A DNA stretch of 64,000 bases from a virus (lineage: Duplodnaviria; Caudoviricetes), in the IMG/VR virus record IMGVR_UViG_3300021138_001350, positions 2,636 to 66,635 of that record; one strand, written 5' to 3'. The translations under genes were made by a program, and so were the position numbers. Positions within the stretch are counted from its first letter, which is position 1; each line of letters starts with the position of its first letter. This document shows, piece by piece, positions 1,550 to 62,100 of this stretch. The notes beneath the pieces were generated by a model. It was not told the origin of the DNA. It was given only the letters and a program-made list of their open reading frames with translations, and made no database searches.

Positions 1550-1960
1550 ATGGCAGACGAATATAAAGAAATACAATCAGCAGTAGATTCGTTATTAGGA
1601 GCAAAATCATCGATAAGAAGAAAAAAAAGAACTCAATCAGAAAGACGAAGAGAATTATTCTTCACATTAATAAATACCTTAGAAGAAACAATAGTAAGAT
1701 CTAACATCGCGTACCAAGAGCTCCAGATCGATCTATTTAAATACGAAGATAAGTATATTCAGACAATAGATATGTTAATGATCTTGAGCTTTGGAGAAGC
1801 TTGCACAGACGTTATTAGTTTTTATCTATATGATAGGATGAATGATGATGCTACACTAAATGCTATGAAAACTACAGATGGCCAAGAAATATTGTTACAG
1901 AATCCTTACGATCTTTGGAATTTATTAGTTATGATGAACCCAAAAATAGATGAAGGGTAG
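1550..1960 (+). CDS. hypothetical protein
   Basis: ORF in tight operon. Confidence 0.75.
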   Translation: MADEYKEIQSAVDSLLGAKSSIRRKKRTQSERRRELFFTLINTLEETIVRSNIAYQELQIDLFKYEDKYIQTIDMLMILSFGEACTDVISFYLYDRMNDDATLNAMKTTDGQEILLQNPYDLWNLLVMMNPKIDEG

Positions 1961-2795
1961 GAGGAAGAAATACCAGAAGAAATTACCGTGGGAACAAAGT
2001 AAGGCGTTAGGATTTCCCCATTTAGGTTTACAATTGACCGAAGACGAGATTAGGGATTCCATGGCCAATTCTCGTACTATAGCCGAAGCTTGTCGATACA
2101 TGGGAATTAACTTCAAAACTTGGGTTAAGTACGCAAGCATGTACATTGACCTTGAGACAGGAAAAACTCTCTACGAAATTCACAGAAAGTACGGCAATCC
2201 CAATGCACAAAGACCTAGAAAACACAAAGAAAATCTACCAAGACTTTATCAAAAACAAATAGACAATCTACTTACTTACAGAAAGTGGACTAGTCCTGCA
2301 AGGGTGGTGATTTTAAAGAAGATGTTGATCTTACACGGATTGCACAAAGAAGAGTGCGAACACTGTGGTTATCACGAAAAAAGAGTAAAAGACGGAAAGC
2401 AACCACTGTTATTACACTTTGTTGACGGTGACCGCAGAAACTGGCAAATAGAAAATATCAGGTGGCTTTGTTACAATTGCTACTTCATTAATGTGTTTGA
2501 CAGTTTTAGTGGACGAGTACTAAGAAATATGCAATCGAGTCCACTTGTTGGTGATGAAACTTCTTTCGAGTCCAATTTACTATTCTACAACATAGACGAA
2601 AATGTGTTAAAAGAGATAGAAAAGATGCAAGCTTTCTTAGACGAAGGAAGATATAAACACGAAGAAGATTTAATCGATTATAAAAACCAAGAAGATCAAG
2701 ATCTAATCGATTTACAAAATATGGTACACGAAATAAAGTACGAAAAACCCGATTTGGGTGACGATGAGAACCTACTAATAGATAGAAAAATTTAA
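1950..2795 (+). CDS. HTH plus HNH-type zinc nuclease domain protein
   Basis: IAEACRYMGINFKTW (HTH-like); CEHCG...LLLHFVDGDRRNWQIENIRWLCYNC (HNH with CxxC pairs). Confidence 0.7.
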   Translation: MKGRRKKYQKKLPWEQSKALGFPHLGLQLTEDEIRDSMANSRTIAEACRYMGINFKTWVKYASMYIDLETGKTLYEIHRKYGNPNAQRPRKHKENLPRLYQKQIDNLLTYRKWTSPARVVILKKMLILHGLHKEECEHCGYHEKRVKDGKQPLLLHFVDGDRRNWQIENIRWLCYNCYFINVFDSFSGRVLRNMQSSPLVGDETSFESNLLFYNIDENVLKEIEKMQAFLDEGRYKHEEDLIDYKNQEDQDLIDLQNMVHEIKYEKPDLGDDENLLIDRKI

Positions 2796-4118: not shown

Positions 4119-4138
4119 TAAAATTAAAAATTAAAGTT

Positions 4139-4366
4139 ATGACAATACAAGTACCAAAATCAGTAAAAAGTTATTCAGAATTGGCAGACGTAAGAAACGA
4201 TGTCAAGTGTAAAATGATTGGTTCATTTTCAGGCCATCTAAAATCTATTCTATATTCAGGATTATTAGACAAAAATGAAATTTCAAAAAAACGAACAGAA
4301 CAGTTTTTAATCGAAATGGAAGAAATTTGGAACGCTCAGTACGAGATTAAAGTAGAGAACAATTAA
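4139..4366 (+). CDS. hypothetical protein
   Basis: ORF, AAAGTTATG start. Confidence 0.7.
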   Translation: MTIQVPKSVKSYSELADVRNDVKCKMIGSFSGHLKSILYSGLLDKNEISKKRTEQFLIEMEEIWNAQYEIKVENN

Positions 4367-4381
4367 CAGTTAATTGACATA

Positions 4382-4433
4382 GGTTAACTGATGAGACTTC
4401 AATAGTCGAAACCGCTATCATGCGGTATTAACC
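4382..4433 (+). ncRNA. hammerhead ribozyme, type I
   Basis: GGTTAA-CTGATGA-GACT(tcaat)AGTC-GAAA-CCGC(tatcat)GCGG-TA-TTAACC: intact catalytic core and three perfect stems; predicted cleavage after GUA (4427). Confidence 0.92.
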
Positions 4434-4448
4434 AATAAAATTAAAGTT

Positions 4449-5414
4449 ATGAATTTATTTCAATCAGTCAAGTCATTTATCAATAGTCGTGAAGTGAATA
4501 GTACGTTTACTACGAAAGAATTACACGATGCTATGAACGGTATTGAAAGTGTAACCGCATGGAAAAGACACGGTAACGAATTCTACAGAACAAATACTTA
4601 CAGATCTTATTTAAGACGTTTAGGTTTTGTTAATAGAATTAAGAACGGTCTTTGGATGGTGATATCACCGATACCAAATTGGTTCGATAGTGGCACTGCA
4701 AACTTTTTATTATTTCCAGCTTATAGATTTGAAAATGGAAAAACAATAAGACAGTCTGAATACAATGGAGAAACTAGAGCTCAGATCGAATTGAAATTAG
4801 AAAATCATTTTAAACATTATAAAAATATGAAACAAAAGTTGGAATTCAAAGTAGGCGACAAAGTAAAAATAGTTGGAAAGACTGGTTACCACGGATTTGA
4901 AATGCAAGAAATTGTAGAAGTTGTTTTCGTTGGTGATGAAACTTTAGAGTGCGAAGGAAACGGTGGTGGAAAAACTACATTTCAACAAACAATAGATAAA
5001 AATGATGTGGTACTGTACTACGAAGTAAACATTCCAGAACCCTTTGAGAAAGAAGTACGACCATCTAGCGCCAAGGAATTGGCAAGAGAATTGGTAGGTG
5101 ACGGTAAAACTCCTAACGTGTGGTTCGTTACTTATGGCGCTTACATAATGGTTAGAGAAGATTTTGATTGTAGCGACTACGAATTATTGGAAGGTTATTC
5201 AGAAAAAGATTCAGAAACTTTTGGACCTTTTTATTCTTACCAAGAAGCTTGCGATAAATACGATGATATAGATTTGGATCCACGCGATGGCATTGGTCAA
5301 GTGTTTATTGAAGACAGATTAATTGGTACAGTTAAAGAGAAGTGCCTAGAAAAGGTAATTAAAGTAGATTATAGTTATAACGAACACGATGATTCAAAAT
5401 TTTATAAAAAATAA
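4449..5414 (+). CDS. mosaic hypothetical protein (winged-helix-like N-terminus, FKVGDKV module)
   Basis: ORF; internal FKVGDKVKI module shared with 11520 and 36721. Confidence 0.75.
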   Translation: MNLFQSVKSFINSREVNSTFTTKELHDAMNGIESVTAWKRHGNEFYRTNTYRSYLRRLGFVNRIKNGLWMVISPIPNWFDSGTANFLLFPAYRFENGKTIRQSEYNGETRAQIELKLENHFKHYKNMKQKLEFKVGDKVKIVGKTGYHGFEMQEIVEVVFVGDETLECEGNGGGKTTFQQTIDKNDVVLYYEVNIPEPFEKEVRPSSAKELARELVGDGKTPNVWFVTYGAYIMVREDFDCSDYELLEGYSEKDSETFGPFYSYQEACDKYDDIDLDPRDGIGQVFIEDRLIGTVKEKCLEKVIKVDYSYNEHDDSKFYKK

Positions 5415-5472
5415 ATTACACAAAATTAAGATCGAAAAAATAAAGTAATCATAAAAATTAAAAATTAAAGTT

Positions 5473-5946
5473 ATGGGATTAGACATGTATTTACACAAAA
5501 AAACTAACGTTAAGAACTACAGCTTTTATTCAGACGAAGAAACTACGTTAGTAACAGTTACAAGAAACGGAGAATCGGTAAAGTCTATCGATCCTTCAAA
5601 AGTATCAATGATAGAGCAAGAAGTTGGGTATTGGAGAAAATTCAATGCTCTTCATTTGTGGTTCGTTAATAATGTACAAGGCGGTAAAGACGATTGTGCA
5701 GAGTACTACGTTAAGAAAGATAAAATGCAAGAATTACTACAAGTATTAAAAGAAGTAAGTAACGATCATTCAAAAGCACCAGAATTATTGCCTATTGGAA
5801 ATGGATTCTTTTTTGGAAATACAGATTATGATGAGTGGTATTTCAATGACGTTAATAGATCAATAATGATATTTGAAGACATATTGAAGACTTCCATTAG
5901 TGAAGACGATTTGTATTCTTCTTATCACTATCAAGCAAGTTGGTAA
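5473..5946 (+). CDS. conserved phage protein (MGLDMY / YWRK family)
   Basis: MGLDMYL...GYWRKFNALHLWF...GFFFG...YQASW motifs. Confidence 0.8.
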   Translation: MGLDMYLHKKTNVKNYSFYSDEETTLVTVTRNGESVKSIDPSKVSMIEQEVGYWRKFNALHLWFVNNVQGGKDDCAEYYVKKDKMQELLQVLKEVSNDHSKAPELLPIGNGFFFGNTDYDEWYFNDVNRSIMIFEDILKTSISEDDLYSSYHYQASW

Positions 5947-9640: not shown

Positions 9641-10159
9641 TTGAAATTAATTAAAATATATGTAAAAAAATTACCTAATAATTTATTTTATTTAGGTAAA
9701 ACAGAAAAAGATCCTTATAAATACAAAGGATCTGGTATATTTGGCTTAGAACTATTAAAAAAAGATGAAATAGCGAATAAAGTAAGAGGCGCTAATAATG
9801 GTATGGCTAAAGCTGTTATACAATATGATAAAGATTTAAATAAAATCAAAGAATATTCTACAGCTAGAGAAGCATCAAAAACATTAAACATAGATTTTTC
9901 AAATACATCTTCAGTTTGTTCAGGAAAAAGAAATAGCGCCGGCGGATTTATTTGGAAATATAAAAACAATCAAAATAATTCTTTATACGTGGATCCCAAA
10001 AGAAGGAAGCTAGAACAACAAGCTACAAGAATATTAAAAGCTTACGAAGTACTCGAAAAGTGGAAACAATATAAAGAGGACGAAAAATATAAATCAAATG
10101 TTACGAAACCAAAAAAGAAGATTTTCTCCAAAAAAGATTCAAGTAAAGACTTGCAATAA
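9641..10159 (+). pseudogene. degraded GIY-YIG/NUMOD1 homing endonuclease, read into a downstream small ORF
   Basis: YLGKT..DPYKYKGSG; the expected WLRTIKK continuation is in another frame; central nuclease missing; NUMOD1-like KAVIQYD...SAGGFIWKY retained. Confidence 0.65.
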
Positions 10160-12508: not shown

Positions 12509-13171
12509 ATGAAGTTAAAACTAGAAAAAGGTCAAAAGTTGTGGTTCACTAGCGATACTCACTACAATCATTCTAACATTTGTAAAGCGACCACTGAGTG
12601 GACCAACGCAACTACTCTTAGAGATTTTGATAGTTTAGAGCGTATGAACCAAACTTTAGTTGATAATATCAATAAAGTAGTTGGTCAAAATGATATATTA
12701 TTTCACTTAGGTGATTGGAGTTTCGGTGGATTTGAACAGATTGAAAAGTTTAGAAATAAGATTGTGTGTAAGAACGTTCACATTATTACCGGTAATCACG
12801 ATCACCACATTGAAAGCAACAGAGAAGACTGTCGAATGCTATTTAGTTCTGTAAATAAGTACTTAGAACTAAGTGTTAAGTGGAATATTGGAATTCCTTT
12901 ACTTAACGAACGATGTGAACAAAATTTTATATTAATGCATTTTCCTATTGCGAGCTGGAATAACATGTCAAGAGGATCAATTCATTTACACGGTCACGTT
13001 CACTTAACTAAAAACCAACGTATAGGTAAAGGTAGAATGATGGACGTAGGAGTTGAAGGTAACGATTTTAGTCCCATCGAATTAAGAGACGTGTTATCGT
13101 TATTACGTAAGCGTCCAATTAAATCTTTGTTAGAAGAAGATCATCACGAAATTATAGAACGGTATCAATAA
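12509..13171 (+). CDS. calcineurin-like metallophosphoesterase
   Basis: FTSDTH, HLGD, GNHD, HF, HLHGHVH motifs. Confidence 0.9.
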   Translation: MKLKLEKGQKLWFTSDTHYNHSNICKATTEWTNATTLRDFDSLERMNQTLVDNINKVVGQNDILFHLGDWSFGGFEQIEKFRNKIVCKNVHIITGNHDHHIESNREDCRMLFSSVNKYLELSVKWNIGIPLLNERCEQNFILMHFPIASWNNMSRGSIHLHGHVHLTKNQRIGKGRMMDVGVEGNDFSPIELRDVLSLLRKRPIKSLLEEDHHEIIERYQ

Positions 13172-13396: not shown

Positions 13397-13810
13397 ATGA
13401 GCAAAGTATTAGTATTATTAAGAGGACTTCCCGGATCAGGAAAAACATCATTCGCAAATTTTATATGGTCTAGCTACGCTGTTTGTGAAGCTGATAAATT
13501 TTTCTATGATAAAGAAAGTAATTACAATTTCGATGCTACTAAATTAAAAGAAGCCCATGAATGGTGCAGAAATGAAGTAGAAACAAGGATGCAAGACAAT
13601 CAAAACAATCCTCAATATTATCCGGAAATTGTGGTATCTAATACGTTTACCCAAGAATGGGAAATGGAAGCTTATTTTGATTTAGCAAAGAAGTACGATT
13701 ATAGAGTAGTATCATTAATTGTAGAGAACAGACATGGAAATAGTAATATTCATGGAGTACCAGATGATGTATTAAATAAAATGAGAAATAGATTTTCAAT
13801 AAAATTATAA
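13397..13810 (+). CDS. P-loop kinase (AAA_33 / polynucleotide-kinase-like)
   Basis: LLRGLPGSGKT Walker A, EAD, VSNTF, HGVP. Confidence 0.85.
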   Translation: MSKVLVLLRGLPGSGKTSFANFIWSSYAVCEADKFFYDKESNYNFDATKLKEAHEWCRNEVETRMQDNQNNPQYYPEIVVSNTFTQEWEMEAYFDLAKKYDYRVVSLIVENRHGNSNIHGVPDDVLNKMRNRFSIKL

Positions 13811-13813
13811 TCA

Positions 13814-14542
13814 ATGTCATTATTAATAGGAAGTACAGCAATTAAATATCATTTTCCAGATTTTCCAAGAGATCCAAAAGATACTGATTATGCAGTAGAC
13901 ATTAAAGAGTGGTCAAAATCAAGTACAAAAAGTACAGAGTATTTACTAAATCCAATCATTGGTAATTTAGATGGTATTGCAAGTCCTGATACTTTGCTTA
14001 CTCTAAAAATGAGTCACGCAATTGGATGGAATATTAATTGGGAAAAACATATTTTTGATATTCAATTCTTATTAAAAAAAGGAGCTAAATTAAATTTAGA
14101 ATTGTTTAATGAATTGTACGCGTATTGGAATACCGTACACGAACCCAATAAACGTAGTGATCTTGATATGAGCGCGGAAGAATTTTTTAACAACACGTTA
14201 AAAACTCCTCATGATTATTATCACACTCTTTTAAAAGAGATTCCTACATACACTAAAGTATTAAAGGACGATGCAGAAGTGGATGTAAGTGAAGACAAAT
14301 TTAATGCATTAGATTTTGAAGAAAAGTGTGATCTTGTTAGAGAAGAAGTTATGGTAATGGCGTACGAAAGATATAAACACAAGAATTTTAGAGTAGCTTA
14401 TTCAATCATGTTAAAAAAATTCATATTAAATCACGCACCGATTTGGGAAGCTTTATTTATAATCCAGAATTTTGTATATTTACACAAACCAAATTTTAAT
14501 TATTTTAAAAAAATAGAAAATGAATTACACAGAATTAAATAA
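13814..14542 (+). CDS. putative nucleotidyltransferase
   Basis: LIGSTA...PKDTDY (Pol-beta GS..DxD), TLKMSH, KHIFDI. Confidence 0.65.
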   Translation: MSLLIGSTAIKYHFPDFPRDPKDTDYAVDIKEWSKSSTKSTEYLLNPIIGNLDGIASPDTLLTLKMSHAIGWNINWEKHIFDIQFLLKKGAKLNLELFNELYAYWNTVHEPNKRSDLDMSAEEFFNNTLKTPHDYYHTLLKEIPTYTKVLKDDAEVDVSEDKFNALDFEEKCDLVREEVMVMAYERYKHKNFRVAYSIMLKKFILNHAPIWEALFIIQNFVYLHKPNFNYFKKIENELHRIK

Positions 14543-15136: not shown

Positions 15137-15352
15137 ATGACAATGCAAGTTACAGATACTATGGTTGAAATTTTAAAAGATCAGTTCTTAGGTAAAAAAA
15201 TATCATTGTTAGATTCTAAAGGAAAAAAATGGGTGGGAAAATGTGAATTCATTGGTCCCAACCCATTCATTCCAAGTTGGGGGTTACAAGTAACTATTGG
15301 AAGAATGCCTATTACTAATGTGCAAATTAAGTCAATTAAAATAGAAGACTAA
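15137..15352 (+). CDS. hypothetical protein
   Basis: ORF, AAGTTATG start. Confidence 0.7.
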   Translation: MTMQVTDTMVEILKDQFLGKKISLLDSKGKKWVGKCEFIGPNPFIPSWGLQVTIGRMPITNVQIKSIKIED

Positions 15353-16512
15353 TGAAAAATGAAAATAGTGTTTGCTTTATCGGAGTTATTAAAGAAGTGA
15401 TACAAATTCCAGGAGCAGATAATATAGAACAAGCATTCATAGGTGGATGGTCTTGTATAATTAAAAAAGGTTCAAGCACAAAAGGAGATCACGTTGTTGT
15501 TGCTACAACAGATGCAGTAATTCCTGAAGCTTTAGCTGAATCTTTAAATGTTACTAACTATCTACGTAAAGGTAATAGAGTACGTACAGTTAAATTGAAA
15601 GGTGTATACAGTGAATGCTTGATCATGGATTTAGATAGCGTTCCTCAAATGAAAAAGCAATACGCTACAGGAATTGGTTATTATTGGGACGAGGGAGAAG
15701 ATCTAATGGAGTTATTAGGAATTTATAAATTTGAACCTCCAGTAAAAACAATTCAATTATCAGGTGGTAGAAAAATTAGGTATTCTGATAACCCAAATTT
15801 TCACATTTATTATAAGTTTCCAAACATTAAAAATGTGGAAGGTATTTTTAAAGAGGACGAAGATGAGGTTGAAATTACCAGAAAGATTCACGGTACTAAT
15901 GCTAGATATGGAATTGTAAAGAAAAAGAATCTATCATTTTGGGACAAGATTCTAAAATTTTTAGGATTCGCTGACAAATGGATTGAGTACGAGTTTTGTG
16001 TTGGTTCTCATAATGTAGAAAAAGGATCTGATTCTCAAGGATTTTATGATACAAATGTATGGAGAGATATTGATGCTAATTATCGAATTAAAAAAAGGTT
16101 GTGGGATTATGTAAAGCATGATCATACACCGTCTTCCATTGGTTCTGGTTTTGTATTATACGGTGAGATCTACGGAGCTGGGATACAACAAAATTATGAT
16201 TATGGTTTAAATGGAATAATGTTTAAGGGATTCGATATAACTATTAATGGAAAATACCAATCTACAGAGGATACTCATTACATAATCTCTGAAGAATTGG
16301 GATTATCATACGTAGATATTTTATTTATAGGACCGTGGAGAAAATCAGTACAAGACTTTTACGCGATGAATCAATTCATTCCAAATACTAAAATTCCAGA
16401 GGAGGGTATAGTAATTAAACACCTGTCAGGCGGTAGAAGTAAAGTAGCAAAAGTAATTAACCCAGATTATCTCATCTATGCAGAAAAGAAAGACGTAGGA
16501 GATTCACACTAA
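15352..16512 (+). CDS. RNA ligase, DRB0094/Rnl5 family
   Basis: N-terminal OB (IPGADNIE, RVRTVKLKGVYSE); motif I KIHGTN; YGEIYG, FDI, EEGIVIK, KVINPDYL. Confidence 0.9.
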   Translation: MKNENSVCFIGVIKEVIQIPGADNIEQAFIGGWSCIIKKGSSTKGDHVVVATTDAVIPEALAESLNVTNYLRKGNRVRTVKLKGVYSECLIMDLDSVPQMKKQYATGIGYYWDEGEDLMELLGIYKFEPPVKTIQLSGGRKIRYSDNPNFHIYYKFPNIKNVEGIFKEDEDEVEITRKIHGTNARYGIVKKKNLSFWDKILKFLGFADKWIEYEFCVGSHNVEKGSDSQGFYDTNVWRDIDANYRIKKRLWDYVKHDHTPSSIGSGFVLYGEIYGAGIQQNYDYGLNGIMFKGFDITINGKYQSTEDTHYIISEELGLSYVDILFIGPWRKSVQDFYAMNQFIPNTKIPEEGIVIKHLSGGRSKVAKVINPDYLIYAEKKDVGDSH

Positions 16513-17272: not shown

Positions 17273-17286
17273 ATGTAACAAAAATC

Positions 17287-17628
17287 ATGAAAATAGCACT
17301 AGCAATTTTATATTCTTTTATTGGTCAAGTAATATCTTTTGTGGCACTTCAAGGATCCACTAGATACGAATTTGTAAAAAATAATCAATGGTTAGCATGG
17401 TTATCAGGAATGATAAGTACAATGTTATTCATGAAAAGCGTCGGTTATTTTGTAGAGTATTATAACGGTCAAGTGTGGCCATCAAGAATATTTGGATTCG
17501 TCATTGGTTTAGTCGTATTTTCTTTGATGAGTTACTTCTTATTCAACGAGAAAATATCTTTAAAAACGGCAATTTGTTTAGGACTGTGTATAGTAATTAC
17601 ACTAGTTCAGTTATTATGGAAAAATTAA
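17287..17628 (+). CDS. 4-TM SMR/EamA-like membrane protein
   Basis: Four hydrophobic helices; FLFNEKISLKTAICLGL. Confidence 0.65.
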   Translation: MKIALAILYSFIGQVISFVALQGSTRYEFVKNNQWLAWLSGMISTMLFMKSVGYFVEYYNGQVWPSRIFGFVIGLVVFSLMSYFLFNEKISLKTAICLGLCIVITLVQLLWKN

Positions 17629-17632
17629 GATT

Positions 17633-18394
17633 ATGAAAACAGTAATTATCTCTGACGTACACGGTAGATCTGTATGGAAATTAATCACTCACATGGAAAA
17701 TGCAGATAGAGTTATTTTCTTAGGTGATTATTTTGATTCATACGAAATTTCAGCAGCCGAACAAATATACAATTTTCAAGAGATTATTGATTTTAAAGAA
17801 ACTTCGTTTACAAATTCAGGAAAATCTGATCAACATAAAACGAAAGTTATCTTATTAATCGGTAATCATGATTATGGGTATTTTAGTGGAATCGATGGCA
17901 CTAAAACTTCAGGTTATCAAATTAACTTAGCTCCAAGCATTAATATTGTATTAGAAGAGAATAAGCATCACATGCAAATGGCTTATCAATTTGATAAGTT
18001 CTTATTCACACACGCAGGTGTCAGTGAAGTGTTTATGAACGACATATTTGGAATAAATGAATGGAAGATTGAGAATCTTGTATCAGATCTTAACGATTTG
18101 TTTAAGTACAAACCCCAATCATTTATGTTTAATACGGCAGACAGGATGGGTTTTGGAGATTATGAACATCAATCACCAATTTGGATTAGACCAAGAAGTT
18201 TAATGAAAGCTGGTAAATTGGACAGAGAATTAAAGAAGCATGTTATTCAAATTGTTGGACATACAAAACAAGACCAAATAGATATTAAAGGTAAAGCAAC
18301 TGGAAATAGATATTATTTTACTGACACACAAGAAACATCGGGAGAATATTTAGTTATCGAAAACGGTGTTGTAAAAATCGGCAATACTAGATAA
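17633..18394 (+). CDS. calcineurin-like metallophosphoesterase
   Basis: SDVHG, LGDYFD, GNHD, THAG, PIWIRP, VGHT. Confidence 0.9.
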   Translation: MKTVIISDVHGRSVWKLITHMENADRVIFLGDYFDSYEISAAEQIYNFQEIIDFKETSFTNSGKSDQHKTKVILLIGNHDYGYFSGIDGTKTSGYQINLAPSINIVLEENKHHMQMAYQFDKFLFTHAGVSEVFMNDIFGINEWKIENLVSDLNDLFKYKPQSFMFNTADRMGFGDYEHQSPIWIRPRSLMKAGKLDRELKKHVIQIVGHTKQDQIDIKGKATGNRYYFTDTQETSGEYLVIENGVVKIGNTR

Positions 18395-21953: not shown

Positions 21954-22367
21954 ATGACTCGAATAAATACGATACCTCCAAATAAATTGTGTGATTCTCA
22001 TTTGATTGCAGAATATAGAGAGATATTACGAGTATTTAAATTGGCAAAACATGATGAGAAAGCTCCTAAAGAGTTTACATTAGGGAATGGTCACGTAAAA
22101 TTTTTCTTTAATAAGTTACAATACACCCACGAAAGATTTAATTCATTAAGACAAGAGATATTAGATAGAGGATTTAAACCTAAAATGGAGTTTGATTCAG
22201 AAATTTTAGAATCTAAAAGATATTTATATAACCCATGGGAAGCAACAGAAATATCCAAAGAATTAATTCGACAAAGGATATTAGAACGAGCATTAACCAT
22301 GAAGAATATAAGATATCGAGGGGAACTAATAACATTTGATCAATACAAACAATTACTGTATGATTAG
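21954..22367 (+). CDS. denV: pyrimidine dimer DNA glycosylase / endonuclease V
   Basis: MTRIN...LCDSHLIAEYREI.R, FTLGNGHVKFFFNKL..RG: T4 DenV signature with catalytic T2 and E23. Confidence 0.93.
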   Translation: MTRINTIPPNKLCDSHLIAEYREILRVFKLAKHDEKAPKEFTLGNGHVKFFFNKLQYTHERFNSLRQEILDRGFKPKMEFDSEILESKRYLYNPWEATEISKELIRQRILERALTMKNIRYRGELITFDQYKQLLYD

Positions 22368-32466: not shown

Positions 32467-32539
32467 GCACCTGTAGCCCAACGGGAGAGGCAATAGACTT
32501 AGAATCTATTCAGTGTCGGTTCGAATCCGACTAGGTGTA
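32467..32539 (+). tRNA. trnL: tRNA-Leu (anticodon UAG), short variable loop, CCA not encoded
   Basis: Acceptor GCACCTG/TAGGTGT, anticodon arm ATAGA-CTTAGAA-TCTAT, T arm GTCGG-TTCGAAT-CCGAC, discriminator A. Confidence 0.9.
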
Positions 32540-32617
32540 CATTTACATCATTTAAACAAAACGGGGTGGGTCAAAACTCACCTCATATATTCACCCAGTA
32601 ATAAAAATAAATAAGTT

Positions 32618-33699: not shown

Positions 33700-34506
33700 A
33701 TGACAAAGTTATCACAGCCTACAGAAATTAAAGTATTGGACCTTAAGAAAGCAAAGGAACTTGCACCCGCAATTTTTGCTACCGAGCCCGCATCGTACAT
33801 CAATCTGAACCGTTACAAGTTCACACCAACCACGGACATCATCAACCACATGGATCAATTGGGTTGGAAGTTAACCAACGCAAAACAATCAAGGACAAAG
33901 GTGCCATTGAGATTGAATTACGGCGTACACATCACAGAGTTCCAGCATCCTGATCTGTACATCAAGGACACAACAGGTGCAATAGAGGCAAGACCTACTG
34001 TAGTACTGTTGAACAGCCACGATGGATCCAGACCAATTAACTTTGAGATGGGCCTATTCAGATTGGTATGCTCAAACGGTTTGATGGTTAAGGACAGAGA
34101 CTTCGGCGGATTCAAAGAGAGACACACCAAGTATACACTACAGGAAGTACAGAACATGATTGATCAGAAGATGGAGGGATTGAACGGTACAGTAGAGAAG
34201 ATCAACAGATGGACAGGTATAGAGATGAGTGCTAAGGACAGACGCGCCTTTGCAATAGAAGCATTGGCGTTAAGGATTGGAGAGGACAGACAAGCAGAGG
34301 ACTACGAGATCATGGAGATATTGAACCCACGCAGAGAGGCCGATGCACCCAATACCCTATGGCACACATTCAACAGGGTACAGGAGAACATCATCAGAGG
34401 CGGGTACCAGATGAACAACCGTACAGCGCGCCCAATCACCAACCCAATACAGGACATGGTATTGAACCAAGGTCTGTGGCAGTTGGCAGATGTGTACGCG
34501 TCGTAA
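33700..34506 (+). CDS. DUF932/DUF945 family protein
   Basis: APAIFA, LLNSHDGS, GLFRLVCSNGL, PRREAD..TLW.TFNRVQEN. Confidence 0.9.
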   Translation: MTKLSQPTEIKVLDLKKAKELAPAIFATEPASYINLNRYKFTPTTDIINHMDQLGWKLTNAKQSRTKVPLRLNYGVHITEFQHPDLYIKDTTGAIEARPTVVLLNSHDGSRPINFEMGLFRLVCSNGLMVKDRDFGGFKERHTKYTLQEVQNMIDQKMEGLNGTVEKINRWTGIEMSAKDRRAFAIEALALRIGEDRQAEDYEIMEILNPRREADAPNTLWHTFNRVQENIIRGGYQMNNRTARPITNPIQDMVLNQGLWQLADVYAS

Positions 34507-45790: not shown

Positions 45791-48700
45791 TTAACATTGA
45801 TGACCTCTTGCAGTCATTACTCCAGTACTAGCTGCAATTGTATATGTAGTTTGTACAGCATCATTAATATCATATACATAAATAATTCCATTTATAGGAG
45901 TTCCTGATGAATTTCTAGCAACCATTCCAACTCCAAAGAATCCACCATTTGCTGTATATGTAGCTTTATCTGTTGAATTTAAGTAAATATTAAGATTAGC
46001 ACCTGGAGTACATGATGAACTACTAGGTAATTGTGGTAAACCTTTAGCTAGAGTAACTGATACAGATGGAGAATGGCTAGGTGTTACACTAGGAGTAGCT
46101 GACACTGCAGGAGTTACTGATACTGAAATACTAGGCGTACTACTTACCGCTGGAGTAACTGATATACTAGGTGTACTACTTACCGCTGGAGTAACTGATA
46201 CTGCTGGAGTATTACTTACTGCTGGAGTAGGACTAGGCGACGGTGTAGGTGATGGTTGAGGACATGTTCCACAAGTTGGTGTAAATCCAGTATTAACTGT
46301 AGCAAATGAACTACCATTAGTAACATTAATAGCTAAATATACTGGATTACAACTTGGTGATTCTTTAGTTCCTCCAGGAGAACAACTATTAAATTGAATA
46401 TAGTATACTCCTGTATTTAAAGTAGCAAAAGTACTACTTGTGAATGTTGTGCTTGCACAGAAAGTAGGAGCATTACCACCAGTTCCAGTAGTAGTACCGC
46501 CAGTGCCCGCATTTGCGTCAGGTGTACCAGGCACAGTTGCTCCATTACAAGAATCATATGCATTTGTAGCTAAATAAATAGTATTTGCAAAGTTTGCAGG
46601 AGGTGAAGTACTCGGAGTAGGAGATATACTTACTGCAGGCGTTACTGATATACTAGGTGTAACAGAAACACTAGGTGTAACTGATACTGCAGGCGTTACT
46701 GATATACTAGGTGTAACTGATACTGCAGGCGTTACTGATATACTAGGTGTAACTGATACTGCAGGCGTTACACTTACACTAGGTGTAATTGAAATACTAG
46801 GAGTTATAGAAATGCTAGGTGTTACTGATATACTAGGTGTTACTGATATACTAGGCGTAATTGAAATGCTAGGTGTAACAGAAACACTAGGAGTAACTGA
46901 TACACTAGGTGTTACTGATATACTAGGCGTAATTGAAATGCTAGGTGTAACAGAAACACTAGGTGTAACAGAAACACTAGGTGTTACTGATATGCTAGGA
47001 GTAACTGATACACTAGGTGTTACAGATATACTAGGTGTTATACTTACACTAGGTGTTATACTTACACTAGGTGTTACTGATATACTAGGAGTTACACTTA
47101 CACTAGGTGTAATAGATACGCTAGGAGTAACTGATATACTAGGTGTTACTGATATGCTAGGAGTAACTGAAACACTGGGTGTTACACTAGGTGTAATTGA
47201 AATACTAGGAGTAACTGATATACTAGGAGTAACAGAAATACTAGGAGTAACTGAAACACTAGGTGTTACACTTACACTAGGAGTAGCTGAAACACTAGGG
47301 GTAACTGATACACTAGGTGTTACTGATACACTAGGTGTTACACTAGGAGTAACTGAAACACTGGGAGTTATACTTACACTAGGAGTAACTGATACTGAAG
47401 GTGTAACAGAAATACTAGGAGTAACTGAAACACTAGGAGTTATACTTACACTAGGCGTTACAGATATAGAAGGTGTTACTGATATACTAGGGGTAACAGA
47501 AATACTAGGAGTTACACTAGGGGTAACAGATATGCTAGGTGTTATACTTACACTAGGTGTTACAGATATAGAAGGTGTTACTGATACACTAGGTGTTACT
47601 GATATACTAGGTGTTACACTAGGAGTAACTGAAACACTGGGAGTTTTACTTACACTAGGAGTAACTGATACTGAAGGTGTAACAGAAATACTAGGAGTAA
47701 CTGAAACACTAGGAGTTATACTAGGCGTAATTGAAATACTAGGAGTAACAGAAATACTAGGAGTAACTGATACACTAGGAGTTATACTTACGCTAGAAGT
47801 TACACTTACACTAGGTGTAATTGAAATACTAGGAGTTACAGATACTGAAGGTGTAACAGAAATACTAGGAGTAACTGATATGCTAGGAGTAACTGAAACA
47901 CTAGGTGTTACACTAGGGGTAATAGATACGCTAGGTGTTATACTTACACTAGGTGTAATACTTACACTAGGTGTAATCGATACACTAGGTGTTATAGATA
48001 CACTAGGAGTTACACTAGGAGTAGCTGAAATACTAGGAGTAATTGAAACACTAGGAGTTTTACTTACACTAGGAGTAACTGATATACTAGGAGTTACACT
48101 AGGAGTAACTGAAATGCTAGGCGTAACAGAAATACTAGGAGTTACACTAGGAGTTATACTAGGAGATAATCCAGGAGTTGTTGATACACTAGGCGTAACT
48201 GATATGCTAGGTGTTACTGATATACTAGGAGTTATGCTAGGTGTAATTGAAACACTAGGAGTAGCTGAGATACTCGGTGTAAGACTTACACTAGGAGTAA
48301 CAGAAATACTAGGAGTTACACTAGGGGTAACAGATATGCTAGGAGTTATACTTACACTAGGTGTAATAGAAACTGTTGGAGTTATACTCACACTAGGTGT
48401 AACAGATACACTAGGAGTTATACTTACACTAGGTGTTTTACTTACACTAGGCGTAATAGAAACTGTAGGAGTTATACTCACACTAGGTGTAATAGAAACA
48501 CTAGGTGTTATACTAGGAGTTATACTAGGAGATAATCCAGGAGTTGTTGATACACTAGGAGTAACAGAAATACTAGGAGTTACACTAATAGTAACTGATA
48601 TGCTAGGTGTTACTGATATACTAGGAGTAGCCGAAATACTAGGAGTAACAGAAATACTAGGTGTTATAGATACACTAGGTGTAACAGATACACTAGGAGT

Positions 48701-60258: not shown

Positions 60259-62100
60259 TTATCCTTTATTTGCTGACATTAGATTTTGTTGAAGTTGTGC
60301 AGTCGCTTGTGCCATTGCCTTTCTCATACGTCTTCTAAGAGCTTTTCCGCCTTTTTGCTTATTCATAAATGCGTTTAATCCAAGTCCTACATCTTCATCC
60401 TCATTATCAGGAGGATCTACTTGAGTATCTATATTACTTAAGAAATCTAATGATTGTGTATTATCTTCTATGTAAGATAAAGCTTCTTGAATAGTTGCTA
60501 ATTGATCTCTACTTAAAGATGAATTTGGTATTTGCACAAGTTTTTTAGATTCTAATAAAAGTTGAACTTCTTCTATTATAATATTGTCATTGGAAGCATA
60601 TGTAGGAGTAGAATGTACTACTTCAAATCCATTAGAATCAAGAGCAATCCCATATCTTCTAAATATTTTTACATTAGGATTTAATAATTGTTCAGATATA
60701 ATTTGAATAGTATATCCACCAAATGTAGTATTTGCAGTATTTTTCTTTTTTTGACTATTTTTTACAAAATTATTTAATTGACCAATTAATCCTATTGTGG
60801 GTATTTGAGCAGTAGAGTCTCCATTTAAATGAACTAACGTAGCTTTTAAACTATCAACTAGTCCAGTAGGCGCATTTTGGCAAGATTCAAGATTAATTAT
60901 AATAATATTCAAACTTTGAACTACTTGATTTAAATCTCCTGAAATGCTTGAAACTAAATTTACCATCAATGATAAAAAATCATTTAATGCAGCTATATCT
61001 AATAAAATCTTATCTAAAAAAGAATTTATTTTTGCTGCAGCGCCTGCTACAGTAGTTGTAATACCAACTATTGTAAATTCATTTGGTATTGGAAGTTTAC
61101 CTAAAAAAGAAACAATGGTAGAAAAAACTTTAACTAAACCTGCTGCTATATTTACATAGGTTTGACAAGTTCTTATAGTAGATAATATCATACTACAAAA
61201 CCTCTCTATTGAAACACATTGTTGCTGTATATTTTGTAAACTCGGTACTAATTTAGTTAGAGAATTGCCTAAAACGCTGTTTAATTGTGCTAATTGAGCC
61301 TGAACTAAAGAATTAGTTAATACAGCGGCTTCAGCTAATGCTGCAGACGCTATTGCACTTTGAGGATTTTTTACGTTTATAGCCTGTATTCTAACGCACG
61401 TTGTTCTTATATTATTTAAAAAAACTAAAACTTTTTTAAGATCAGTATTAGAAGTAAGTTGTATTCCTCCTACAGAAGTTTTATTTTTTAAACTATTTAT
61501 ACTAACTGTATTTAAATCTTCATTTGATATATTAACTGCGGTTACATATGTGTTTAAAAAAATAATAGCACTACTTACAAATATATTAATTACATTTAAA
61601 GTTGGAAATGCTGTAGTAATAGTAGGATCTACTATATTTGCTTGACTTTTTGGATCATTTAAATTTTTTAATCTTATTACTACATCTCCGATTAAAGCAA
61701 TTAGATCTGACATATTAACTTCTTGTCCATTTGCGGCATTATAGTTATCTATTTCTAATTGAATTTCGTAAGCGGCCTTTTGAATTAACCAACCCTTTTG
61801 AGTAATTACTGAAGGGAATTGTTGTTTATTGGGAGGATTGTTTGGATCAAATTTATACCCTTGTATATTAGATAATAAATTTGCTTCATACGCTAAAATA
61901 GAACAAAGATCTACTGAAGCTAGTAAATTAATCACGCCTAAAACTCCAATATCCTTAATTCTCTCATTAATTCCTGCTGTCTTTAATTCACCAGGAGATA
62001 AGGTTTGAGTACCATTAAACACAGTGTCAATATTCGAATAAATCGTGTCTATTGTTTCATTAGCAGACTTGATTGCTCCTTCAAATATTCCTCCTGCCAT
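60259..62100 (-). CDS. helical virion-region protein
   Basis: 613-aa ORF in structural operon. Confidence 0.7.
   Translation of the reverse strand: MAGGIFEGAIKSANETIDTIYSNIDTVFNGTQTLSPGELKTAGINERIKDIGVLGVINLLASVDLCSILAYEANLLSNIQGYKFDPNNPPNKQQFPSVITQKGWLIQKAAYEIQLEIDNYNAANGQEVNMSDLIALIGDVVIRLKNLNDPKSQANIVDPTITTAFPTLNVINIFVSSAIIFLNTYVTAVNISNEDLNTVSINSLKNKTSVGGIQLTSNTDLKKVLVFLNNIRTTCVRIQAINVKNPQSAIASAALAEAAVLTNSLVQAQLAQLNSVLGNSLTKLVPSLQNIQQQCVSIERFCSMILSTIRTCQTYVNIAAGLVKVFSTIVSFLGKLPIPNEFTIVGITTTVAGAAAKINSFLDKILLDIAALNDFLSLMVNLVSSISGDLNQVVQSLNIIIINLESCQNAPTGLVDSLKATLVHLNGDSTAQIPTIGLIGQLNNFVKNSQKKKNTANTTFGGYTIQIISEQLLNPNVKIFRRYGIALDSNGFEVVHSTPTYASNDNIIIEEVQLLLESKKLVQIPNSSLSRDQLATIQEALSYIEDNTQSLDFLSNIDTQVDPPDNEDEDVGLGLNAFMNKQKGGKALRRRMRKAMAQATAQLQQNLMSANKG

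Follow-up and report, generated by a model that had tools for sequence, protein, structure and literature searches.

The window analysed here, a stretch of 64,000 nucleotides which constitutes most of the 66,635-base IMG/VR virus record IMGVR_UViG_3300021138_001350 (CheckV completeness 43%), carries on its plus strand, at positions 4382-4433, a canonical type I hammerhead ribozyme with three stems and an intact catalytic core. It lies between two open reading frames (ORFs) of the same strand and belongs to a family of ribozymes from other phages whose stems I and III covary. We consider it likely that it is a working ribozyme which cuts a plus-strand multi-gene transcript after A4427 and thereby provides the gene of a 321-residue protein with a leader of 21 nt starting with a 5'-hydroxyl group (5'-OH).

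The motif can be read directly from the sequence (Table 1). Its helices follow one another in the order I-II-III and comprise 6, 4 and 5 bp, respectively, stem I being open while stems II and III are capped by loops. All core features of the class, i.e. C3 U4 G5 A6 N7 G8 A9, G12 A13 A14, the A15.1-U16.1 pair and a residue other than G at H17, are present. When the segment 4381-4434 is folded in isolation, the structure of minimum energy is exactly the hammerhead fold. An initial inspection of the sequence without database searches, henceforth called the sequence-only reading, had proposed a type I hammerhead with intact core at this site; both our reading of the sequence and the descriptor search described below bear this out, and every element it had named was recovered in its place.

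The core alone is not a sufficient criterion, as a loose core pattern produces a single match in the window against 5.19 expected by chance and at least one match in 78 of 100 shuffled sequences. It was therefore replaced by a full type I descriptor including the core and all three stems. Applied to both strands of the 64 kb, this descriptor finds a single site, while 300 dinucleotide-preserving shuffles contain none, and the corresponding type II and type III descriptors find no match in the window.

Confirmation by the Rfam hammerhead covariance models, which the sequence-only reading had put forward as a check, was not obtained. The models concerned are RF00163 and the other curated hammerhead families. 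At gathering scores a tRNA is the only RNA reported in the window, and a permissive scan of the whole window (E ≤ 5) yields neither a hammerhead family nor any other ribozyme. The best match within the segment 4300-4520 is RF03152 (RAGATH-1 hammerhead) with 23.2 bits (E 0.066 on 221 nt), its gathering threshold being 56.3; it is the sole hammerhead family there, RF00163 and RF00008 not being listed in this segment at E ≤ 10. With the window ribozyme RF03152 shares the CUGAUGA-GACUU...C-GAAAC core context, the short open stem I and the closed stem III. In contrast, its stem II consists of a single annotated pair, while that of the window is a regular helix of 4 bp with a loop of 5 nt. The RF03152 model also features a hairpin 5' of stem I with which AATTAA/TTAATT of the window becomes aligned, but this element is lost through a deletion of 17 nt in relatives which keep the ribozyme. 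The low score is not peculiar to the window, since 17 ribozymes of the same subclass at 15 other loci are likewise not detected at the curated Rfam thresholds.

A family to which the ribozyme could be compared was collected by scanning viral contigs with a pattern which specified the core and stem II but placed no constraint on the loop, and which gave hits at at least 118 loci; all family counts given in the following refer to the matches listed. They amount to 128 including the window and leaving out a duplicate locus from its own genome (L001). Five are too close to the end of their locus, so that 123 are assessable, and 119 of these fold as hammerheads: 102 are type I and 17 are type III, in which the same core and stem II are combined with a capped stem I and an open stem III, while four are neither. 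If the 3' flanks are shuffled, a type I hammerhead arises in 110 of 2460 trials. Stem I reaches 6 bp or more in 17 of the 2460 shuffled, but in 91 of the 123 real sequences. We would like to note that, by the way of collection, stem II is invariant, and hence the independent evidence within the family is confined to stems I and III and to the flanks.

Among the 72 unique type I members, stem I comprises exactly 6 bp in 59, and the cleavage triplet is GUC in 63 and GUA, as in the window, in six. Forty-seven of the 72, chosen because their stem I measures 6 bp and their stem III segment does not exceed 26 nt, were aligned for the analysis of covariation. In this alignment 99.7% of the cells are paired compared to 26-43% if the 3' strand is slid into other registers. 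Ten of the 15 pairs, namely all six of stem I and four of the five of stem III, have been changed on both sides, and the resulting covariation score is attained by none of 500 shuffles. A covariance model built from the 47 members detects one site in the window with 71.5 bits, the next best reaching 13.1 bits, and one in the whole contig. A further match of a covariance model at 45894-45937 (12.9 bits) was rejected, as it lacks GAAA and leaves too little room for two stems. With a leave-out model (R2; 45 sequences, the window and a close relative having been removed) the window ribozyme still scores 69.5 bits over the full model length (positions 1-60; E 2.9e-15) and represents the sole match at E ≤ 1 in 64 kb. 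From the leave-out model together with the covariation we conclude that the ribozyme belongs to a genuine family under structural constraint.

In three contigs a version of the downstream protein with 96% identity is encoded, and the ribozyme is retained in all of them. Compared to the window, the close relatives show TATCAC in place of TATCAT in loop III, a deletion of 17 nt directly upstream and GTTGA instead of ATTGA. When the 3 kb surrounding the ribozyme were searched for near-identity against GenBank phages, no match was obtained. A homologue of the neighbouring gene at 5473-5946 is present at 25 loci, of which the three near-identical ones alone harbour a hammerhead. The element is thus portable and occurs sporadically, as has also been described for hammerheads of prophages (PMC3088659). 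Four loci (L034, L073, L075 and L114) contain two unique type I copies each, separated by a few hundred bases with a small gene in between.

By these sequence features the window ribozyme belongs to a compact type I subclass which is common in phage genomes. It shares with the other members the stem I of 6 bp enclosed by A4381 and A4434 as well as the loop II sequence TCAAT, the GUA triplet being its exception. The subclass is defined here from viral contigs and may already be listed in the supplementary data of earlier work. Natural hammerheads cleave rapidly at physiological Mg2+ concentration only if loop II makes a tertiary contact with the region of stem I. For this contact the sequence-only reading had suggested base pairing of loop II with ATTGA at 4373-4377, a proposal which finds no support. 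Shuffling of the 24 bases upstream produces complementarity over five nucleotides in 426 of 5000 cases, which places the match at chance level. Across the 72 members the best complement between loop II and the upstream sequence averages 3.68 compared to 3.65 for shuffled upstream sequences, and in the 59 members whose stem I has 6 bp the positions -12 to -2 relative to it are unconserved. Mutual information between loop II and the flanks provides no convincing covariation, since the lowest p value in 95 tests is 0.006 and nothing survives correction. We therefore reject a pseudoknot between loop II and the upstream sequence. In the 55 members whose loop II has 5 nt, by contrast, the loop itself is strongly conserved (U in all 55, any base, A in 48, A in 43, U in 48). 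The conservation of loop II and the invariance of the adenines bracketing stem I suggest a docking of the loop onto the end of this stem. The speed-enhancing contact is probably formed in a non-Watson-Crick manner between loop II, U-N-A-A-U, and these adenines, whereby the assignment of the partners follows from conserved bases and not from covariation. According to Perreault et al., both a pseudoknot and the known loop contacts are absent from many hammerheads (PMC3088659).

As to its placement, the ribozyme occupies the gap between two plus-strand ORFs; the sequence-only reading had located it 21 nt upstream of the start of a putative early gene. No ORF of at least 30 codons overlaps 4367-4448 on either strand. 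The downstream 321-residue protein shows no Pfam family and no match in the PDB below E 0.1. Its single PHROG match is weak (E 7e-4) and of unknown function, and its Atlas matches stay below 0.9, none of them being convincing. The sequence AAAATTAAAGTTATG just in front of and including its start codon proves to be the ordinary translation-start region of this phage: at up to three mismatches it is found 45 times in the window, compared to 18.7 expected, mostly at starts of plus-strand ORFs. The lack of a Shine-Dalgarno sequence in this region would be consistent with a host of the Bacteroidota type. The 3' cleavage product would open with UUAACC followed directly by AAAATTAAAGTTATG, so that an ordinary start region adjoins the ribozyme on its 3' side.

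This arrangement recurs within the family. In 46 of the 72 unique members a stop codon positioned between -6 and +5 nt relative to stem I terminates an ORF of 50 or more codons on the same strand, such that the invariant A, and often also the first G of stem I, belong to this stop codon. The next start lies 10-49 nt beyond the cut in 39 members. In 32 a stop at most 30 nt upstream is combined with a start at most 60 nt downstream, and only three of the 72 reside inside an ORF of 50 or more codons on the same strand. The genes downstream are diverse, 49 ORFs falling into 42 clusters.

Based on these observations we envisage the following course of events. A plus-strand multi-gene RNA would run from the 75-codon ORF into the 321-codon ORF, and the folded ribozyme would cut itself after A4427. 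The upstream RNA would then end in stems II and III and bear a 2',3'-cyclic phosphate, while the downstream mRNA would begin with a 5'-OH and an unstructured A/U-rich leader of 21 nt holding the usual start-region motif. As the likely effect, the fates of the two mRNA parts, i.e. their stability and translation, would become uncoupled as by a built-in insulator. The sequence-only reading had likewise seen in the ribozyme a processing element of a polycistronic mRNA. The placement within the family, with 46 of 72 members at stops and 39 of 72 in front of starts, is in line with this, while the effect of cleavage itself stays an inference. The idea of such processing is already in print for phage hammerheads (PMC3088659, PMC6765202).

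Several points weigh against this interpretation. Transcription of the site and cleavage of the RNA are deduced from the sequence, and what a 5'-OH end would entail is governed by the RNases of the host. The promoter scan covered promoters of the sigma-70 type, for which it gave 37 matches compared to a mean of 44.1 in shuffled sequences, and a promoter within the upstream ORF is possible. No Rfam hammerhead model attains its gathering score at the ribozyme, and the pattern from which the family was collected stems from the core and stem II of the window itself, which renders these columns circular. Finally, in the natural upstream context a hairpin competing with the hammerhead is favoured (-19.8/-20.1 kcal/mol compared to -15.4 kcal/mol for the hammerhead fold, in energies which leave out the tertiary stabilisation of hammerheads), so that the active fold may represent a minority or be in need of help. 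By the same kind of energies, stem I appears in the minimum-energy fold of just 18 of the 47 aligned family members.

The competitor hairpin consists of 12 pairs and one A-A mismatch. Its 5' arm contains the stop codon of the upstream ORF and its 3' arm comprises the 5' strand of stem I together with the entire CUGAUGA. This raises the question of whether cleavage is gated by translation: once transcribed, the hairpin would trap the stem I strand and CUGAUGA until ribosomes terminating on the upstream ORF melt its 5' arm, such that only translated transcripts would be cut. The predicted stability of the hairpin points in this direction, as in the window it amounts to -8.3 kcal/mol and is equalled in one of 200 shuffles. 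In the relatives 12 contiguous pairs are formed in a shifted register (7047-7074 in L117), a segment of 50 nt folding with -14.9 kcal/mol (two of 200 shuffles), and it is the A-to-G change at the ATTGA site which allows this even stronger helix. The stop codon lies within the 5' arm in the window as well as in the relatives, and the energy of the duplex between upstream sequence and target is unusually low in both (p = 0.027 for the window; p = 0.003 for L117, the lowest of the 72). A single p value of 0.003 is, however, unremarkable among 72 tests, the window and L117 represent a single lineage, and the region is rich in TTAA-like words prone to promiscuous pairing. Moreover, the competitor is not a trait of the family and was rejected as such: p ≤ 0.05 is reached in four of 72 members (binomial p = 0.49), the mean duplex energy is -4.6 for natural compared to -4.8 for shuffled sequences over the 72 members, and the cost of forcing the hammerhead fold does not differ between natural and shuffled upstream sequences (Wilcoxon p = 0.64; 47 members). 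By these calculations the hairpin is a lineage-specific feature, and gating by translation, which the folding model would permit, appears to us a rather unlikely reason for its presence. If it did apply, self-cleavage and release of the mRNA for the 321-residue protein would report on translation of the upstream gene. We are similarly doubtful about the joint proposition that the compact subclass, with the bracketing adenines standing in for loop I, is a natural mRNA insulator which has additionally become a translation-gated switch in the lineage of the window.

It is very unlikely that the motif lacks a present function, be it as a decaying relic or as a chance look-alike which has never cleaved at a meaningful rate. 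Its sporadic occurrence (three of the 25 loci with a homologue of 5473-5946), the folding in favour of the competitor and the lack of any Rfam model at threshold might be taken in this sense. A decaying or accidental hammerhead would, on the other hand, hardly display consensus bases at all core positions and perfect pairing in all three stems, a full motif absent from all 300 shuffles and a score of 69.5 bits against the leave-out model. Furthermore, the close relatives have kept the ribozyme with a change merely in a loop, despite the deletion of 17 nt adjacent to it.

The plus-strand genes between 12509 and 18394 make up a cassette for the healing and sealing of RNA ends (Table 1). Such cassettes are usually regarded as a means by which phages counteract the tRNA anticodon nucleases of their hosts. 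The ends which a hammerhead generates, a 2',3'-cyclic phosphate and a 5'-OH, correspond to the chemistry repaired by enzymes of this kind. The sequence-only reading had pointed to phosphoesterases, a kinase and an RNA ligase as being able, in principle, to heal these ends. All of them are indeed encoded, and this together with the matching chemistry speaks for a scenario in which the cleavage products are healed and sealed to religated, circular or spliced RNA. A link to the ribozyme is nevertheless not apparent. The 66.6-kb contig contains a single hammerhead of any topology and thus no pair which could excise a segment. At 117 of the 118 other listed hammerhead loci (1.06 Mb) the flanks analysed are devoid of homologues of the five proteins, the one exception being a near-identical relative, and in the window 8-14 kb separate the cassette from the ribozyme. 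The customary assignment of such cassettes to the defence against anticodon nucleases also provides them with a different task. Spliced or circular products were sought, but not detected, by Perreault et al. (PMC3088659). We thus regard resealing of the products as highly improbable.

Least credible of all is a signal at the level of DNA or another RNA signal (promoter, terminator or attenuator) in place of a ribozyme, since, even though TTGACA at 4374-4379 equals the -35 consensus of sigma-70 and TATCAT at 4416-4421 resembles a -10 box, these two are 36 nt apart with no suitably spaced -10 box, the relatives have lost the last T of the latter (TATCAC), the consensus scan for sigma-70-type promoters and intrinsic terminators, whose counts do not exceed those of shuffled sequences, shows no such site at 4373-4448, no run of T follows the stem III hairpin, and the covariation of stems I and III across unrelated phages would be left without explanation.

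We return to the proposed mRNA-processing ribozyme and compare it to known systems. Intergenic hammerheads have been known from phages since 2011 (Perreault et al. 2011, PMC3088659). There, hammerheads were found to flank prophage genes, and polycistronic fragments of about 2 kb were cleaved in vitro. The window ribozyme has in common with these phage and prophage examples the consensus core, the intergenic site on the same strand and the inconstant neighbours, as well as the proposed role of cutting long phage transcripts to gene-length mRNAs (PMC3088659). What that report stresses, however, is type II with a pseudoknot between loop I and the 3' tail and a tandem, gene-flanking arrangement, whereas the window contains a single type I ribozyme for which a pseudoknot is unsupported. 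The closest parallel in position is HHphage of the haloviruses HF1 and HF2, which lies 13 nt before a start codon, compared to 21 nt in the window. The gene in question is one of the early region, and the ribozyme stands at the beginning of a polycistronic transcript whose mapped 5' end falls within three nucleotides of the cut (PMC3088659). Yet HHphage comes from archaeal viruses of high-salt habitats and has an atypical core insertion, while the core in the window is fully canonical. A more recent source states the hypothesis of polycistronic processing and still calls the role elusive (PMC6765202). Type I hammerheads in the 5' untranslated regions of fungal and plant RNA viruses are likewise found just upstream of a viral ORF; their self-cleavage has been tied to expression of the downstream protein and is described as enabling translation initiation (PMC13725137). 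These are eukaryotic RNA viruses with cap-independent translation, in contrast to the uncultured double-stranded DNA phage considered here with its bacterial translation system.

In function, the proposed role resembles that of engineered insulators of the RiboJ type, in which a hammerhead placed before the ribosome-binding site removes upstream RNA and leaves a defined short leader with a 5'-OH. The likeness is functional only, as RiboJ is synthetic and derives from a type III ribozyme of a satellite RNA with an added hairpin.

Members of the same subclass are present in the Flavobacterium phages vB_FspP_elemoA and elemoE (MT497017.1 and eight other GenBank records); the host of vB_FspP_elemoA is Flavobacterium sp. 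BAL314. The ribozyme of MT497017.1 reaches 59.9 bits with model R2. The phage ribozymes share with that of the window the A-bracketed stem I of 6 bp, the GACU/AGUC stem II with a U-U-A-A-U loop and the position between same-strand genes, but differ in the sequences of stems I and III, the GUC triplet and the unrelated neighbour genes. This analogy hints at a Bacteroidota-type host for the phage of the window. In MT497017.1 (vB_FspP_elemoA_7-9A) no RNA feature is annotated at the ribozyme; instead, a 'hypothetical protein' of 35 residues is placed over it on the opposite strand (17275-17382; 568-675 of locus L124), a coding sequence which is probably spurious. Among the papers searched, none contains both 'hammerhead' and 'Flavobacterium phage'.

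Table 1. Features of the window referred to in the text; positions are counted from its first nucleotide.
Feature	Position	Strand	Basis or remark
A 5' of stem I	4381	+	A in 59 of 59 family members with 6-bp stem I
Stem I, 5' strand GGTTAA	4382-4387	+	sequence, descriptor, covariation
Catalytic core C3-A9, CTGATGA	4388-4394	+	sequence, descriptor
Stem II hairpin, GACT/AGTC	4395-4398 with 4404-4407; loop TCAAT 4399-4403	+	loop fits family U-N-A-A-U
Catalytic core G12 A13 A14, GAA	4408-4410	+	sequence; GAAA = 4408-4411
Stem III hairpin, A15.1-U16.1 and CCGC/GCGG	4411-4426 (A-CCGC 4411-4415, GCGG-T 4422-4426); loop TATCAT 4416-4421	+	
A17	4427	+	predicted cut 4427/4428; GUA triplet G4425-U4426-A4427
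Stem I, 3' strand TTAACC	4428-4433	+	first bases of predicted 3' cleavage product
A 3' of stem I	4434	+	A in 98% of the 59 members with 6-bp stem I
ATTGA, rejected partner of loop II	4373-4377	+	complementary to TCAAT; GTTGA in close relatives
Competitor hairpin (predicted)	4363-4394	+	5' arm 4363-4375, 3' arm 4382-4394; nearest-neighbour folding
Upstream ORF, 75 aa, no family	4139-4366	+	TAA 4364-4366, 15 nt before stem I
Downstream ORF, 321 aa	4449-5414	+	ATG at 4449, 21 nt after the cut
Leader AAAATTAAAGTTATG, ending in start codon	4437-4451	+	exact copies 4127-4141 and 5461-5475, before ORFs 4139 and 5473
HNH endonuclease	1950-2795	+	PHROG match
NUMOD1-type homing-endonuclease-like protein	9641-10159	+	
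Metallophos phosphoesterase (calcineurin-like)	12509-13171	+	Pfam
AAA_33 P-loop kinase	13397-13810	+	
DUF7275/DUF7277 protein	13814-14542	+	
RNA ligase, PF09414 and PHA02142 OB domain	15352-16512	+	
Second Metallophos phosphoesterase (calcineurin-like)	17633-18394	+	
Pyrimidine-dimer DNA glycosylase (Pyr_excise)	21954-22367	+	
tRNA-Leu, anticodon TAG	32467-32540	+	Rfam 57.9 bits; ARAGORN
DUF932 protein	33700-34506	+	

As regards the remainder of the window, a block of plus-strand ORFs (437-43013) converges with a block of large minus-strand ORFs (43666-63855; up to 1535 residues), the latter presumably being structural genes. For one of the minus-strand ORFs (612 residues; 60259-62100) a tblastn search found no match in GenBank phages.

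The findings leave the knowledge of hammerhead chemistry unchanged. They do reveal that annotation with Rfam at curated thresholds misses the ribozyme of the window and 17 others of its subclass. The defined layout, in which a stop codon is followed by the ribozyme, 10-49 nt and a start codon, renders the idea of an mRNA insulator concrete and testable, and in the lineage of the window the competitor hairpin could make cleavage conditional. Since Flavobacterium phages which have been cultured and whose host is known carry ribozymes of this subclass, the mapping of 5'-OH ends in vivo and the construction of mutant phages are feasible.

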